Shown here: positions 3,853-18,149 of the stretch, piece by piece
Layout: every line of letters starts with the position of its first letter
How positions within the stretch are numbered: the stretch's first letter is position 1
DNA from: a virus
Taxonomy: Duplodnaviria > Heunggongvirae > Uroviricota > Caudoviricetes
Strand: one strand, 5' to 3'
DNA length: 20,274 nt
IMG/VR virus record: IMGVR_UViG_2548877009_000004
Translations under genes and position numbers: made by a program
The notes under the pieces: generated by a model
What the model was told of the DNA's origin: nothing
The model's input: only the letters and a program-made list of their open reading frames with translations
Database searches by the model: none

Positions 3853-4947
3853 ATGAGCAGACCGGACTGGGGGGCGTTGCAGCAGGAGTATATTGCTGAA
3901 TACACCCGCTCCGGTATATCTCCGGTGGCATGGTGTGAAGCAAGGGGACTGAACTACGCAACAGCCCGTCGTTACATCAAAAAAACTCCGAAAAATGCGC
4001 AGAAAGAAATGCGCAAAACTGCGCAAAAAAGTGCGCGAAAAAAAACTGCGCAGACTGCGCAAAGGCAGAACGGAAAATCTCAGAAAAAAAAGGCTGTATC
4101 CGATGCACTCCTGATTGAGGGGGACACGGAAGAAATTTCGTTCTGCCCCGATGAATTCGGTATTTCTGACCAGCAGGCAAAATTCGCCATGTTGGTTGCT
4201 CAGGGGAAAAAGCCGACAGAGGCATACCGACTGGCTGGTTATGAGGGGCAAGGTGCGACAGCTAACAGCAACGCCAGCCGTATGCTTAGAAATGCCAGGG
4301 TTTATCGTGCTATCAGCTACTTCCGCAATCAGTACCAGAAACGCTATACCGCAGACCTGGATTTACTGGTGAGCCAGTTGATGGCCATTGTCCAGGCCGA
4401 CCCCAATCAGTTGGCACAATTTCGCCGTGTTAACTGCCGTTATTGCTGGGGCGAGAATCATCTCTACCAGTGGCGTGATATTGCAGAATTCGATAAGGCT
4501 GCGGCACAGGCCTCCAGAGATGGTAAACCCGAGCCGGAATATGGAGGCCTCGGCTTTGTTGATAACGCCATACCCAATCCTGATTGCCCGAAGTGCTGCG
4601 GTGAGGGAACAGGACAGCTTTATATGGCTGATACCACACTGCTTGATGGGGATGCGCGGCAATTATATGCAGGGTCAAAGCTCGGAAAATACGGTGTTGA
4701 GATCCTGCTGGAGGATAAGGCTGCCGCCCGGCGTGAATTGTTGCGTTTGCTTTCTGCTGGCGGGGCATTATGTGCAGATAAGCGGCTACAGGAACTGGAA
4801 ATTGAACGGCGCAGAATAGAGAACCAGAAGCTGCGCAAAGAGATCGAAACGGTGGAGGATAATGAACATCCCCAGCCTGTGGCGATCAATATTAATGTGG
4901 TTGATGCCAGATTAAGGAGTGATGAAGATGATCTCTCCGACGCTTAA
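3853..4947 (+). CDS. Terminase small subunit (extended form with basic linker and Cys-rich zinc-ribbon-like region)
   Basis: N-terminal HTH (ISPVAWCEARGLNYATARRYIKK) and a small-terminase-like core (QQAKFAMLVAQGKKPTEAYRLAGYEGQGATANSNASRMLRNARVYRAISYF). CxxC ... CxxCC cluster (CRYCWGENH ... CPKCCGEG). Sits directly upstream of the large terminase. Confidence 0.78.
   Translation: MSRPDWGALQQEYIAEYTRSGISPVAWCEARGLNYATARRYIKKTPKNAQKEMRKTAQKSARKKTAQTAQRQNGKSQKKKAVSDALLIEGDTEEISFCPDEFGISDQQAKFAMLVAQGKKPTEAYRLAGYEGQGATANSNASRMLRNARVYRAISYFRNQYQKRYTADLDLLVSQLMAIVQADPNQLAQFRRVNCRYCWGENHLYQWRDIAEFDKAAAQASRDGKPEPEYGGLGFVDNAIPNPDCPKCCGEGTGQLYMADTTLLDGDARQLYAGSKLGKYGVEILLEDKAAARRELLRLLSAGGALCADKRLQELEIERRRIENQKLRKEIETVEDNEHPQPVAININVVDARLRSDEDDLSDA
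3996..4061 (+). repeat. Six direct TGCGCR repeats phased by A-tracts inside terS
   Basis: TGCGCA/TGCGCG at 3996, 4010, 4020, 4032, 4047 and 4056, spaced 9-15 nt, each followed by an A-run. This stretch encodes the basic low-complexity linker AQKEMRKTAQKSARKKTAQTAQRQ. Confidence 0.7.
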
Positions 4948-11842: not shown

Positions 11843-12223
11843 ATGGCAAAGGCATGGGATATAGAACCGTCAATATTTGCCGGGATGATTGAGGAAGATG
11901 TAGGGCTGAAGATTCGCTACATCGCTATTCAGATTCTTACTGCTATTGATATTGCTGCTCCGGTTGATACCGGACGTTTCAGAAATAACAACCTGGTGTC
12001 GTTACAGCATCCCGATTTTGGTATATCTGATAACGTGGATCCGAACGGTACGATTGCTGTTCAGCGTGGGATCGGGGTTATTTCGAAAGCTGCAAATTAC
12101 GGAGTTATTTATATCCAGAATAACCTTCCTTATGCAGAGGCTCTTGAAAACGGTCATTCACAACAAGCGCCAACTGGCGTGTATGCCAACGCTTTTCATG
12201 GTGTTTTACAGGCTTACAAATGA
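11843..12223 (+). CDS. Tail component (HK97 gp10-like / neck protein)
   Basis: 126-aa ORF; TAAATG coupling to the previous gene and AGGAG upstream. Call by synteny. Confidence 0.5.
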   Translation: MAKAWDIEPSIFAGMIEEDVGLKIRYIAIQILTAIDIAAPVDTGRFRNNNLVSLQHPDFGISDNVDPNGTIAVQRGIGVISKAANYGVIYIQNNLPYAEALENGHSQQAPTGVYANAFHGVLQAYK

Positions 12224-12612
12224 CGTTTACTGAAATCAGAAATACGGTTATTTCCAGAATGACGGCACAGACGATTATTGATGGAAAAGACGTATTGTAT
12301 CCGAACGCGCCAACGTTCGATCCTTCCGGTAAGTTAATCTGGGCGCGGTTAAGTAATATTCCCGGGCAGGCTGGAGTTAATGAAATTGGCGCGGGGCCGA
12401 TTGTTTATCGCACGGGGATAATCATTATTCAGTTATTTGTCCCCGCAGGTTCTGGTTCAAAACTCATTACTGAGACAGCCGATAAATTGCGGGAACTGTT
12501 TGAGTTTCAGGATGACGATCGTCTCAGTTACCAGGCTGTTTCCTCAATAGCCGTTGGCGAAAAGAATGGCTGGTTCCAGCTTAATCTTCAAATTCCATAT
12601 CGCGCGCTCTAG
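12220..12612 (+). CDS. Tail completion / tail terminator protein (gpU-like position)
   Basis: 130-aa ORF with ATGA overlap to the previous gene, immediately upstream of the major tail gene. Confidence 0.5.
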   Translation: MTFTEIRNTVISRMTAQTIIDGKDVLYPNAPTFDPSGKLIWARLSNIPGQAGVNEIGAGPIVYRTGIIIIQLFVPAGSGSKLITETADKLRELFEFQDDDRLSYQAVSSIAVGEKNGWFQLNLQIPYRAL

Positions 12613-12638: not shown

Positions 12639-13601
12639 GTGAGTTCAGGTGCAAAGGTTATCTCGGCATTTATCCGGGAGACGGTTGCAGGCACTACGCC
12701 AGCAAGTGGTGACTGGAGTTTATTAAAACGCACAAGCTGGGGAGTAAAACCCACCCAGAATAAAGGCGAAAATAATGAGATTGGTGGCTCCCGGATGGCT
12801 CAGGGGGCGACGCCTGGCACTGTGGATGTCGGCGGTGATGTTGGTACCAAATTTCGCTGGGGTCAACATGATGATTTTCTTGCATCCTGTTTCGGCGCGG
12901 AATGGTCAGGCGATTCTCTGACAATGGGGAATGAGCGAATAACATTTTCTCTGGCGACCTATGCGTCCGATGTCGGAATTGCCTCTGTCGTCAGAGGAGC
13001 GCAGGTTGGCTCATGGAAAATGCAGATCCCTAACGACGGCGATATTACAGCGACCGTAACCTTTGCCGGACTGGACTGGGAATCAAAGGCCGATGATACG
13101 AATTTTATCAAAGGCGAACCTGTGGATAGTGCAGGAAAGCTACGTTATTCGTTTAAGGAGGTTTCAGCAGTAAGCCTGAATGGTGTTGCCGGAGGTAACG
13201 GTTTTTGTATCGACAGTTTTGATATTCAGTTCGATAACAAACTCCAGACACAGCGTTGTATCGGGACTGGCTCGCCTTATGCAGGAGCAAATATTCCGAC
13301 TACTTTTACACCGTCCGGTACGGTGACGCTTTCATGGTCTAAAGCCGCGTGGGAAATCTGGAGTAAAACACTGACTGGAGAAACAGTTCCGATCAGCTTC
13401 ACGCTTTCGAATGGAGAGGGGGCATACACTTTCAGTTTCCCGAAGGTTCAGGTGTCAGGTGAATGGCCTGATGGGGGTAATAGCGACATTATCCAGGTTC
13501 AATTGAGCATTACCGCAGCAGATGAAGCACCTACGATAACCAGAAAAAAAAATTCCCCGGCTGCCGTGATCGCAAAAGCCAGTGCTGAGGCGATTAGTTG
13601 A
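12639..13601 (+). CDS. Major tail (tube) protein
   Basis: 320-aa ORF starting at GTG 12639 with AGGAGG 6 nt upstream. Gly/Ser/Thr-rich, beta-type composition. Sits directly before the G/GT chaperone pair. Confidence 0.65.
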   Translation: MSSGAKVISAFIRETVAGTTPASGDWSLLKRTSWGVKPTQNKGENNEIGGSRMAQGATPGTVDVGGDVGTKFRWGQHDDFLASCFGAEWSGDSLTMGNERITFSLATYASDVGIASVVRGAQVGSWKMQIPNDGDITATVTFAGLDWESKADDTNFIKGEPVDSAGKLRYSFKEVSAVSLNGVAGGNGFCIDSFDIQFDNKLQTQRCIGTGSPYAGANIPTTFTPSGTVTLSWSKAAWEIWSKTLTGETVPISFTLSNGEGAYTFSFPKVQVSGEWPDGGNSDIIQVQLSITAADEAPTITRKKNSPAAVIAKASAEAIS

Positions 13602-13649: not shown

Positions 13650-14111
13650 ATGAGGTTATGGATGTTTATTCTTAATCAGAAAATTATCATTGGTGGAGAA
13701 CGCTGGTTTACGCCAATGAAGGACTTAAAACCTGTAGACGGGTTAAAACTGTTGGTGGCAAGCAGCGATAACGATCAGTATCGCTCCCGTAATGCATTAA
13801 TCCGTCGCCACATTGAGAAAATGGATGCCAGTTTGCACGTCGGAACGAAGGAGTTTGATATTTCAAAGGTTTCCGAGGTGGATTCTGTTGATGATTTACT
13901 CATTGATAATGCCGCTCGTTATCTGCTGAAAGACTGGAAAGGGGTTGGTGAACTGGTTAATGGTGTTGAGGTTGCACTGGAATATACGGCAGAACGAGGG
14001 ATCGCGCTGCTTAAGCAGAATCCAGAGTTGTACTGGCAGATCCTTGCAGAAGCAGCCAGCATCGCCCAGGGTAAAGAGCAGCAGAAGCAGGATACGATAA
14101 AAAAGCCATAG
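13650..14111 (+). CDS. Tail assembly chaperone (lambda gpG analogue)
   Basis: 153-aa acidic protein between the major tail and tape measure genes. It ends ...QDTIKKP with the slippery heptamer A AAA AAG inside its last codons. AGGGGGA lies upstream of ATG 13650. Confidence 0.7.
   Translation: MRLWMFILNQKIIIGGERWFTPMKDLKPVDGLKLLVASSDNDQYRSRNALIRRHIEKMDASLHVGTKEFDISKVSEVDSVDDLLIDNAARYLLKDWKGVGELVNGVEVALEYTAERGIALLKQNPELYWQILAEAASIAQGKEQQKQDTIKKP
14099..14105 (+). other. Programmed -1 ribosomal frameshift slippery site (A AAA AAG)
   Basis: Heptamer X XXY YYZ in the G frame, 2 codons before the G stop. The -1 frame is open from 14075 to 14419. Confidence 0.65.
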
Positions 14112-14419
14112 CTGCCCAGCGGTGGTTATCGGAGTTCGGGGGAGAAAGGGGGGAAAAGGCAAGATGGAAGCGAGAAAAACTCAGGTTGCCACCGATACCG
14201 GAACCAGAAATAGACCCGGTGCTTAAGGAGTTGTTGTACGCCTATTCGGTAATATCCCGTGCCCGACGTTATGCTGGAATGGCTGGGGTGCCTTTGCCTT
14301 TATCTCTGACAGAGATAAATGAATATTTAGCCACTCATCCGGTATTGATTGAGCGCGATGAATTTGAAGCAGTGATCTTTGCACTGGATGACCAGTATTT
14401 TCAGGAGCAGTGTGTGTAG
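14105..14419 (+). CDS. Tail assembly chaperone frameshift extension (lambda gpT analogue; expressed as a G-T fusion)
   Basis: The -1 frame relative to G is open from 14075 and ends at TAG 14417-14419. The track lists it only from TTG 14186 (77 aa); read from the slip site it adds about 104 aa to G. Confidence 0.65.
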   Translation, partial: AIAAQRWLSEFGGERGEKARWKREKLRLPPIPEPEIDPVLKELLYAYSVISRARRYAGMAGVPLPLSLTEINEYLATHPVLIERDEFEAVIFALDDQYFQEQCV

Positions 14420-14539
14420 TTGTTAATTACGTACACTCTGTTACAGAGATGTGATGGTGTCTTTAATTAAATCGATGATGCTCCTGGAGAAAAGCATTGC
14501 GTGGCCTCGTAATCGCTATATCTACTATTATGTCGCCTG

Positions 14540-14566
14540 AAACCCACTTCGCGGTGGGTTTTTTGT
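14540..14566 (+). terminator. Intrinsic terminator upstream of the tape measure gene
   Basis: aaacccac (14540-14547), ttcgcg loop, gtgggttt (14554-14561), then a T-run; AGGAG and ATG 14585 follow. Confidence 0.6.
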
Positions 14567-14584
14567 TGTCAGGAGTTTTAATAA

Positions 14585-17500
14585 ATGGCAGAGCAAACCT
14601 CGCGTCTCGCAATAATTATTGATAGCACTGGAGCGAAAAATAATGCTGACAATCTGACCTCCTCATTAGTCAAAATGACGCAGGCTGGGGAAACTGCTGC
14701 AAATAGCGCAGGGAAAGTGACTAAGGCAACAGAAGATGAGAAGAACGCGCTCGCAAAATTAAAAGCAGCTATTGATCCAGTTGGTGCCGCAATTGATACT
14801 GTCGGTCGACGCTATTCTGAATTAAAGAAATTTTTCGATAAAGGGCTTATTGATAAAGAAGAATATGAATTTCTTGTCCGTAAACTTAATGAAACCACAG
14901 AGGAATTGAGCGGGGTTGCGCAAGCGCAGAGAGAAGCCGAGAAGGCCGGAAAACTTGCTGCCGCCCAGCAGGAAGCGCAGGCTCAGGCCTTTCAAAGAAT
15001 GCTGGACAAGATCGACCCTCTGGCTGCGGCGCTAAGAAATCTTGAACAACAGCATGATGAACTTAATGCTGCGTTTGCATCCGGGAAAATAAATGGTTCT
15101 CAGTTTGAGAATTATAGCCGAAAAATACAGGAAACACGGCGAGAGCTTACCGGAGAGGCTCAGGCAGAGCGAGAAGCAGCAAAAGCGCATGATGAACAGG
15201 TTGTTGCTTTGCAACGTCTGATTGCTCAACTTGATCCTGTCGGAACTGCTTTTAATCGTCTGGTAGAACAACAGAAACAGCTCAATGAAGCAAAAGCTAA
15301 GGGGATGCTTTCTCCTGAAATGTATGAGGAGCTTTCTGGAAAACTTCGTGCTATGCGGAGTGAGCTTGAGGTTACTCAATCACAATTAAGCAAAACCGGA
15401 ATGTCGGCAAAACAAACGGCTTTTGCTATGCGCATGTTGCCTGCACAAATGACGGATATTGTTGTTGGGTTGTCCACTGGTCAGTCGCCATTTATGGTGT
15501 TAATGCAGCAGGGCGGCCAGCTAAAAGATATGTTCGGTGGGATTGGCCCGGCGATCAAAGGTGTAGGTTCTTATGTGCTGGGATTAATTAATCCTTTTAC
15601 CCTGGCCGCAGCAGCCGTTGGGGTCTTAGGACTGGCTTACTATAAAGGCTCTCAGGAGCAGGACGAATTTAATAAATCTCTTATTCTTACCGGAAATCAG
15701 TTGGGGACAACCAGCGGGCAATTGGGCGATATAGCTCAACGTGCCGGGAATGCGGCTGATTCGACAACTGGTGCTGCGGCGGCAGTATTAAATCAGCTTG
15801 TGCGTTCGGGAAAGGTAGCGAGCAGTTCGCTGGAGCAAGTGACGACAGCGATAGTAAAAACGAGCGAAGTAACAGGAATATCAACCGAACAACTGGTTAA
15901 TGACTTCAATGAAATTGCAAAGGATCCTGTCAGTGCCATATCAAAACTTAATGATCAGTACCATTTTCTGACACTTGCGACTTATAACCAGATTAAGGCG
16001 CTACAGGATGAAGGGAACCAGCAGGAGGCCGCCCGCATTGCGACAGAAGAATACTCATCCTCAATGATCCAGCGCACCAACCAGATTAAAGAAAATCTTG
16101 GTTATCTTGAGACTGCATGGAAAGCTGTCGCAGACTCCGCAAAATGGGCATGGGATTCCATGCTGGATATTGGCCGTGAGGCCTCCCTTGATCAAAAAAT
16201 CTCAGATGTTCTCCGTCAAATTGATGAAATAGAAAAAAATACCCGACCCGGAGTTTTCGGGTTAGGTGGCATTGGAGATGGCGGAGCTCAAAATAAAAGG
16301 CTGGCACGATTAAAGCAGCAATTGGGCGTACTTCAAGCAGAAAAAATTGCTCAGGACGTACTAAATTCATCAATAAACGATTACAACAAGCGACAACAGG
16401 AAGGAATTGAACTCAGACAGAGAGCAGATGCCTTTTCAAAACAATATCAGACCCGGGAGCAGCAGAGAGCTAGTGAACTTGCAAAACTGGAAAAGCTAAA
16501 GAATCAGTATTCAAAGGAAGAATATAATAATCTTATCGCTCAAATAAATGAGCGTTATAAAGATCCAAAGCAACCAAAGGCGAAAGGTTATTCTGATGAT
16601 GCAGCCCAACGAATGATTGATCATCTGAATCAACAGAATGCGTTACTAAGTTCACAAGCTGAGTTGACCGTTAAATTAAGTTCCTCTGAACAGGAACTGG
16701 TTAAGTGGCGTCAGCGGATTGCCGACCTAGAGTCACGACCATCATCGAAATTAACCCAGGATCAGAAATCGCTTCTCTTACACCGGGAAGAAATAACCGC
16801 GTTGATGGAGAAAAATGTTGCGATTGAAAAGAATAACAGGCTAATCAAGGAATCCGCCGAAATAACAGCATGGCGTGATTCATTGCAGGCTTCGATTGAT
16901 AATCGTCAGCAGGGGTATGATATTCAGATTGCTGGTTATGGGGTTGGCGATAAAAATCAGCAACGCCAGCAGGAATTACTGCGGATTGAACATGGATATA
17001 ACAATCAGCGTCTGCAACTTGAACGTGACTATGCAGATAAATCCCGTGGAATGTCAGATCATGTTTTTCAAGAGAAAATGCAGGCTCTGAATGATGCTCT
17101 GGAACGGGAAAAAGAAATTGTCAGACAGAAAAACGAGCAACTCGATATTCAGGCAGGAGACTGGGTTAGTGGTGCCTCCCAGGGATTCAATAACTGGCTG
17201 GATGACACTAAGGATATCAGTGAGCAGATAAAATCAACCACGACTCAGATGTTTGATGGGATGACCGATGCGCTGGGTGATTTTGTCACGACAGGCAAGG
17301 CAAATTTTCGTTCTTTCGCTACTTCCGTGATTTCGGATCTTAGTCGAATGGCATTAAAGGCTTCAATTACTGGGATTTTCGACAGCATTAGTAACAGTTC
17401 TTCTGGGGGGATTTTAGGAACTATCGGGAGTGCTATTAGTAAATTTATTCCGAATGCAAAGGGCGGTGTTTATGAGTCTCCGTCATTGAGCACGTATTCG

Positions 17501-17818
17501 AACGGTATTTATGATTCCCCGCAATTTTTTGCTTTTGCAAAAGGGGCTGGTGTTTTTGGTGAGGCTGGACCGGAAGCCATTATGCCATTAACACGAACTT
17601 CCGATGGTTCTCTTGGTGTCAGAGCTATTAATAGTAAAAGTGGTAATGGAGGCGGAGATATTACCTATGCCCCTGTATACCAAATCACTATTCAAAATGA
17701 CGGCCAGAATGGAGAGATTGGCCCTCAGGCAATAAAAGCACTTATGGGGATGGTTGATCAGCGGGTGCAGGGCAATCTGTTAAATATGCGACGTGATGGG
17801 GGAATATTAAGTGGCTAA
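14585..17818 (+). CDS. Tail tape measure protein
   Basis: 1077 aa, long helical Gln/Ala/Glu-rich sequence. Three N-terminal tandem repeats. A hydrophobic, Gly-rich central segment ([36 protein letters not shown]). Located between GT and M. Confidence 0.9.
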
Positions 17819-18149
17819 TACGGAAGAATTTCACTGGTTACCAGAGGATGGAATGAAAACAGAAAATAAACCATCGATAAAAACTGTAAGATTTGGCGAT
17901 GGTTATGAGCAACGAAGTCCAAATGGACTTAATCATTCTCTGCGCGTTTTCACCTGTGATTTCAAAGTTGAGGCGAATGAACGTGATTCATTTGAAAAAT
18001 TTTTAGCCCGGCATGAAGGCTATAAATCTTTTTTTTGGCGCCCGCCGGGTATTAACAGAAAAATCAGAGTGGTGTGTCGAACGTGGTCAGCGACAGAACA
18101 TATCACCTATACCGATTTTTCGTGTCAGTTTGACGAAGTGGTGATCTGA
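17811..18149 (+). CDS. M: Minor tail protein M
   Basis: Contains [16 protein letters not shown] (lambda M has VRFGDGYSQRAPAGLN) and ends ...FDEVVI (lambda ...FEQVVN). GTG start overlaps the tape measure stop; ATG 17853 is an alternative start. Confidence 0.8.

Follow-up and report, generated by a model that had tools for sequence, protein, structure and literature searches.

The window, that is, the whole stretch of 20,274 nucleotides analyzed here, is an intact, lambdoid E. coli prophage of the Rac type in which the tail genes follow one another in the order tail terminator (12220..12612), tail tube or major tail protein (12639..13601, plus strand), G, T, tape-measure protein (14585..17818, plus strand) and minor tail protein (17811..18149). 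The tube gene matched the Pfam family Phage_tube_2 (E = 4e-32) and is called "phage tail tube protein" by PGAP; the tape-measure gene matched TMP_2 (E = 1e-81), Tape_meas_lam_C and TMP_4, and PGAP agreed on the tube and tape-measure genes as the neighbors of the pair. G is a G-type tail assembly chaperone ORF of 149 aa (13662..14111, plus strand), named ydaY in E. coli by PGAP, whose product is read in the zero frame. Its probable start is ATG 13662 and not the listed ATG 13650, because homologues from other genera begin there; they start with M[LFI]I[LI], which matches ATG 13662. T is a T-type segment at 14105..14419 on the plus strand, where the -1 frame offers 104 codons and a TAG; it is predicted to be reached only by slippage.

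Over 1 kb, the region matches Salmonella phage SPF_0923 at 100% identity, shares ~98% identity with nine induced E. coli phages and is present in 1074 of 5426 complete E. coli genomes, about one fifth; the two-frame arrangement was found in ~1060 of the 5426. The gene ydaY belongs to the Rac prophage, and a truncated copy of it survives in E. coli K-12. In RefSeq/PGAP, "protein YdaY" has 119 aa even in an intact prophage (locus L103, CP095088), where the full gene encodes 149 aa, and this 119-aa model uses the truncated, chimeric K-12 start (MSRSSDNDQY...). The T part is a "hypothetical protein" or absent in public records of close relatives; ON032529, for example, carries a CDS equivalent to 14234..14419 of the window. 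At the E. coli genome matches, ydaY and "hypothetical protein" were the only feature names, and no slippage annotation was present in the inspected records of close (E. coli, Salmonella, Klebsiella) relatives. In the ORF list of the window itself, the -1 frame is represented only by the 77-aa, TTG-initiated fragment (14186..14419) mentioned in the original prediction, and the expectation that automated annotation would miss or mis-start the product was indeed realized in the public records of close relatives. A separate observation concerns the E. coli protein P0040 (246 aa), in which a ParB N-terminal domain (PF02195) is joined to the YdaY family domain (PF27119). Apparently, the ynaK-ydaY deletion in defective Rac left a junction that is read as a single ORF in some genomes.

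Two further features flank the pair. Upstream, the tail tube gene contains a run of nine A at 13544-13552, 16 codons before its stop. Among related loci, the run was A9 in 33, A8 in 5 and A7 in 5, each length giving the tube protein a different short C-terminal tail, and PGAP flagged the tube gene in CP095088 as "frameshifted". This variation could reflect sequencing error, phase variation or a transcriptional-slippage site. Downstream, the gap between T and the tape-measure gene (14420-14584) contains a 28-codon ORF (14454-14540; MVSLIKSMMLLEKSIAWPRNRYIYYYVA) immediately 5' of a terminator-like hairpin with a T run (hairpin at 14539-14562), which lies directly before the tape-measure gene. 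At the same place, relatives from Klebsiella, Pseudomonas and Acinetobacter carry one to three additional small genes, and the equivalent of the gap in Acinetobacter phage TRS1 has an annotated terminator. The gap looks like a moron-type insertion slot.

Direct reading of the codons at the end of G (...CAG GAT ACG ATA AAA AAG CCA TAG) places AAA at 14100-14102 and AAG at 14103-14105. Together with the A at 14099, these bases form a heptamer of the X XXY YYZ type, A AAA AAG (14099-14105, plus strand), in phase with G and followed 3' by CC. It is the sole in-phase slippery heptamer inside the G/T overlap. The stop codon of G, TAG at 14109-14111, is the second codon 3' of the heptamer, exactly as claimed for the end of the tail chaperone ORF. 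In the -1 frame, a TAA at 14072-14074 closes the preceding reading, and the frame is open from 14075 to the TAG at 14417-14419, as had been proposed. The continuation comprises 104 sense codons (14105-14416) encoding AIAAQRWLSEFGGERGEK...QEQCV; the predicted extension of G by about 104 aa agrees with this count. After the slip, the codons read GCC ATA GCT GCC CAG CGG TGG, which translate to AIAAQRW; therefore, the predicted junction peptide DTIKK-AIAAQRW is correct. The +1 frame closes 38 codons beyond the G stop in window-type loci and closes sooner or at variable points in relatives.

The heptamer alone is no rarer than expected by chance: AAAAAAG occurs 8 times in the window, with 6.4 copies expected. 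It stands out by its phase, by its position and by the continuation behind it. The 20 ORFs of the window contain 24 in-phase XXXYYYZ heptamers, and a long -1 continuation lies behind only one of them, that at 14099-14105 (104 codons, versus 56 codons for the next longest of the 24). Two other members of this set may be mentioned in their own right: a second in-phase A AAA AAG at 4086-4092 in the ORF 3853..4947, where the -1 frame stops after 8 codons, and an in-phase G GGA AAG at 15808-15814 in the tape-measure gene, where it stops after 28 codons. Both are probably incidental shift-prone sites giving truncated by-products.

The upstream ORF had been taken for a tail chaperone, and its position between the tube and tape-measure genes as well as profile searches support this. 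The zero-frame protein matched PHROG 313, "tail assembly chaperone" (258 positions), with an E value of 5e-46 at positions 15-149, and the -1 segment aligned with positions 173-246; thus, both halves align to a single profile. The -1 segment also matched PHROG 1189 (E = 1e-36). In Pfam, G gave no matches, and the T segment aligned with positions 12-78 of the 79 positions of Phage_TAC_18 (PF23812) with 20.7 bits (E = 4.7e-4). The curated gathering threshold of this family is 27 bits; judged by this profile alignment, the T segment is related to Phage_TAC_18, without formal membership (20.7 < 27 bits). Profiles of G and T searched against PDB sequences gave no matches. An AlphaFold2 model of G built with 41 homologues (pLDDT of 73) had as its best structural match among 48,164 PDB chains the tail assembly chaperone of HK97 (PDB 2ob9), and by family or fold the G part is a tail assembly chaperone. 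The model of T (pLDDT of 81) gave nothing meaningful when searched against the PDB with Foldseek. In a viral structure library, it matched many ~80-aa orphan ORFs as well as chaperones of ~260 aa from phages CcrColossus, K1H and Loki that are labeled "tail assembly" or "tape measure" and to which it aligned at the C-terminal end; the TM-scores were 0.4 to 0.6 and the best E value was 4e-3.

The comparison set consisted of 80 IMG/VR loci, 14 genome loci (Shigella to Pantoea) and six annotated phage loci. In the 104 loci obtained with the T-segment search (window included), which range from Escherichia to Acinetobacter and Pseudomonas, both frames were present with a shift-prone site at the homologous codon, and the slippery site was retained there in relatives down to ~30% identity. 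It reads A AAA AAG in 94 of the 104 loci (Escherichia, Shigella, Citrobacter, Klebsiella, Siccibacter and Scandinavium) and G GGA AAG in at least 5 loci of four genera (Raoultella, Serratia, Pantoea and, with phages TRS1 and TCUAN1, Acinetobacter). The heptamer begins at the wobble position of an Ile or Val codon, and this base co-varies with the six that follow: ATA or GTA precedes AAA AAG, and GTG precedes GGA AAG. The codons flanking the slippery site vary freely among the relatives, and the CC 3' of the heptamer is found in the window and in all Escherichia, Citrobacter and Klebsiella relatives. Within this single orthologous family, A AAA AAG, G GGA AAG and degenerate sites alternate naturally at one codon.

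The end of the zero frame is variable. In the window, it terminates at TAG after one codon; in loci L062 to L065, this TAG is lost and the zero frame continues for 34 codons; in several Citrobacter-type loci, a TGA follows after 7 codons, and in Pantoea and Scandinavium the stop comes later still. The stop shifts between loci so that G is 149, 155, 165, 167 or 183 aa long. The -1 ORF has 103 to 117 codons across the loci, and its protein sequence is kept. The peptide AI.AQ+WL.EFGGE.GEKA+W+REKL.LPPIPEPEID in the -1 frame is preserved across genera despite many synonymous changes. Nucleotide diversity shows the same change of frame. In the body of G, mean diversity at window positions mod 3 = 0, 1 and 2 was 0.139, 0.085 and 0.363, with the zero-frame third position highest; in 14106-14185, it was 0.140, 0.359 and 0.155, with the -1 third position highest. 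The latter interval lies upstream of the first possible T start codon. Judging from this variation, selection acts on the -1 segment as on a protein-coding sequence, starting at the heptamer. This selection and the slippery site kept in relatives are among the points that support the original reading of the overlap as a -1 frameshift of the G/GT type.

Homologues of T were also collected with a profile from 1.84 billion representative proteins. The search gave 135 homologues, all of 20 to 180 aa, with N termini scattered over profile positions 2-50; gene callers place the starts at 8 or more positions, and a conserved T start codon was not found among the homologues. None of the 135 is an in-frame fusion of G and T. 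With scattered N termini and without a fusion among these homologues, the two-frame arrangement is therefore a constant of the family and not a local lesion. Four database proteins, P0001 to P0003 and P0010, were considered as natural in-frame G-T fusions and rejected; they arose by indels elsewhere in single assemblies.

Not every member of the family has a canonical site at the junction. The Pectobacterium locus (L092) reads G GGG AAG, and in Erwinia phage Gungnir39 (L099) the site is C GCA AAG with TAA as the very next codon. The sites of two Pseudomonas phages, Aurca01 (L096) and phiPSA1 (L101), are also non-canonical, that of phiPSA1 being G GAA AAG. The exact mode of slippage may therefore vary within the family. 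These sites suggest slippage of a single tRNA (on A AAG or G GGG) or a lower efficiency in parts of the family.

We also looked for elements that could stimulate the shift. The hairpin at 14106-14132 was considered as a conserved stimulator and rejected: its z-score of +0.2 to +0.55 is no better than that of shuffled sequences. It is broken in the close relatives L062 to L065, where 14110 has changed from A to U and 14126 from U to A. RNAalifold of 12 relatives gave no consensus RNA structure 3' of the site (-2.7 kcal/mol), and in none of 10 relatives did the sequence fold better than its shuffles (z-scores of -1.05 to +1.14). An Rfam scan of 13900-14700 returned chance-level matches only, none with an E value below 0.09. 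Upstream, an AGGA (14089-14092) is located 6 nt from the heptamer. Many relatives carry it and several lack it, and its presence is confounded by coding, the codons CAG GAx being conserved.

On the evidence of sequence and conservation, the locus very probably uses a programmed -1 ribosomal frameshift of the lambda G/GT type that yields a 252-aa GT fusion, join(13662..14105,14105..14419) on the plus strand. For most ribosomes on 13662..14111, translation would end at TAG 14109 and yield the G-type protein of 149 aa. The others, a minority, would slip back by one base with tRNA-Lys on AAA in the P site and on AAG in the A site, both tRNA-Lys re-pairing with AAA AAA. Decoding would then restart at GCC 14105 and proceed for 104 codons to TAG 14417, which would give the minor, 252-aa GT protein (...DTIKK|AIAAQRW...). 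We infer the occurrence of slippage, its efficiency and the roles of the G and T parts. Sites of the lambda type work at a few per cent. With these and the HK97-like sites as a guide, a low frameshift efficiency would be expected here as well, and a value of a few per cent is anticipated because no stimulator was found. In lambda, the tape measure is held to be coated by G, and the tube protein to be brought in by T (PMC5009743). By analogy, the shared G part would cover the tape-measure protein here and the T part would bring in the tail tube protein, and neither G nor GT would end up in the virion.

Could the downstream ORF instead be an independent small gene with its own start, the heptamer being incidental? 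Public annotation treats it as such (the CDS in ON032529; the "hypothetical protein" of PGAP in some genomes). Candidate starts are TTG 14186, TTG 14231 or 14234 behind AAGGAG (14225-14230) and ATG 14279; the AAGGAG resembles a Shine-Dalgarno sequence and lies just 5' of TTG 14234, but the spacer between them is only 3 nt. Moreover, neither the candidate starts nor AAGGAG are conserved, relatives having GGG GAA ATC CT there, and the starts called in homologues scatter as described above. The coding-type variation in the -1 frame is already seen from 14106 on, whereas the first candidate start comes 80 nt later, and the 27 residues encoded before that start are conserved across genera. Hence, an independent gene is highly improbable. 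The same small probability is assigned to a change of frame made by RNA polymerase, that is, transcriptional slippage on the A6 run. There are six consecutive A at the site, and homopolymeric A/T runs are known sites of polymerase slippage, but the runs implicated have more than 7 A (PMC3711429). In the G GGA AAG members, with only 3 A, this route is impossible, and the conserved feature is not a run of A but a phased X XXY YYZ with a co-varying wobble base, the signature of tandem tRNA slippage.

Finally, the two ORFs might be a pseudogene in a decaying prophage, the debris of what was once a single gene, with a frameshift mutation or a sequencing error in the A run as the cause of the break. 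The Rac prophage of E. coli K-12 is defective and its ydaY truncated, and a few G-T fusions in the databases, such as P0001 and P0002, do result from indels elsewhere. Yet the same arrangement is found in isolated phages as well as in the ~1060 E. coli genomes, and also in relatives from Citrobacter, Klebsiella, Serratia, Pantoea, Erwinia, Pseudomonas and Acinetobacter. Purifying selection acts on both frames, and in-frame fusions are missing from the 135 representative T homologues. This makes debris even less probable than either of the two preceding explanations, and the programmed -1 ribosomal frameshift is the reading we retain.

The mechanism is textbook; only the instance is new. It adds one family to the well-established G/GT rule and leaves current understanding unchanged. 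Its main value is for annotation: with a CDS entered as join(13662..14105,14105..14419) and ribosomal slippage, two proteins of Enterobacterales Rac-type prophages that are now called hypothetical would gain a function. In addition, the family offers a clean example of wobble-base co-variation that preserves a slippery heptamer. In K-12 (strain DH1), the truncated ydaY of the Rac remnant is still followed by the T frame, with all 104 codons intact, and the heptamer is identical to that of the window. Tentatively, K-12 may harbor an unannotated -1 recoding product; separately, and just as tentatively, the alternating heptamers of the family might serve as a natural test series for the G:GT ratio. 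Among the papers searched, none linked ydaY or Rac to a tail-chaperone frameshift; Xu 2004 and Gurvich 2003 may be exceptions. The work of Gurvich et al. in 2003 is said to deal with A_AAA_AAG sites in E. coli genes.

Among the closest known systems is the lambda G/GT frameshift, which was reportedly described by Levin, Hendrix and Casjens in 1993 and by Xu, Hendrix and Duda in 2004, the latter authors reportedly also in 2013 and 2014 (summarized in PMC5009743). In lambda as in the window, the pair sits between the major tail and tape-measure genes, a short ORF has a -1 extension of ~100 codons that begins a few codons before the stop, and the heptamer is an X XXY YYZ ending in A AAG without a strong RNA stimulator. 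The heptamer itself differs, as had been pointed out, being A AAA AAG in the window and G GGA AAG in lambda; nevertheless, some members of the window's family carry G GGA AAG at the homologous codon. A second difference lies in the sequences: homology of the window's G or T to the lambda families was not detectable, G having no Pfam match and T only the Phage_TAC_18 match below the threshold. The G/GT frameshift has been confirmed experimentally in lambda, P2, L5, TM4, phiC31, HK022 and HK97 (PMC5313236).

Acinetobacter phage vB_AbaS_TRS1 provides a distant relative in which slippage is annotated: its chaperone, TRS1_18/TRS1_19 (NC_031098), is deposited as a joined CDS. Its T homologue is 38.8% identical over residues 170-249 of the GT query, its -1 extension likewise has the gene for the major tail protein on one side and the tape-measure region on the other, and the slippery site is at the homologous Val-Gly-Lys codon position. 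TRS1 differs in using G GGA AAG, in a zero-frame ORF that runs ~28 codons past the site and in extra genes between T and the tape measure. The heptamer of the window, in turn, is identical to that of E. coli dnaX (gamma/tau), where A AAA AAG is read by the single tRNA-Lys of E. coli; A_AAA_AAG is among the most shift-prone heptamers in this organism (PMC5009743). The dnaX site is flanked by two stimulators, a Shine-Dalgarno-like sequence upstream and a stem-loop downstream, and its shift reaches ~50% (PMC3711429). In cassettes of this type, the upstream stimulator is expected ~10 nt from the heptamer and the stem-loop a few nucleotides 3' of it. Of this cassette, the window has the heptamer; a conserved stimulatory hairpin was not found downstream, and only the doubtful AGGA lies 6 nt upstream. 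Moreover, the dnaX shift truncates the protein, whereas the shift in the window would extend it. In Loki, whose chaperone was among the structural matches of the T model, a frameshift product at AAAAAAC has been predicted (PMC5313236). HK97, finally, is like the window in that its chaperone (PDB 2ob9) is the best structural match of the G model and follows the same two-product logic, and at sites of the HK97-like chaperone cluster 6 to 7% frameshifting was measured (PMC3711429).
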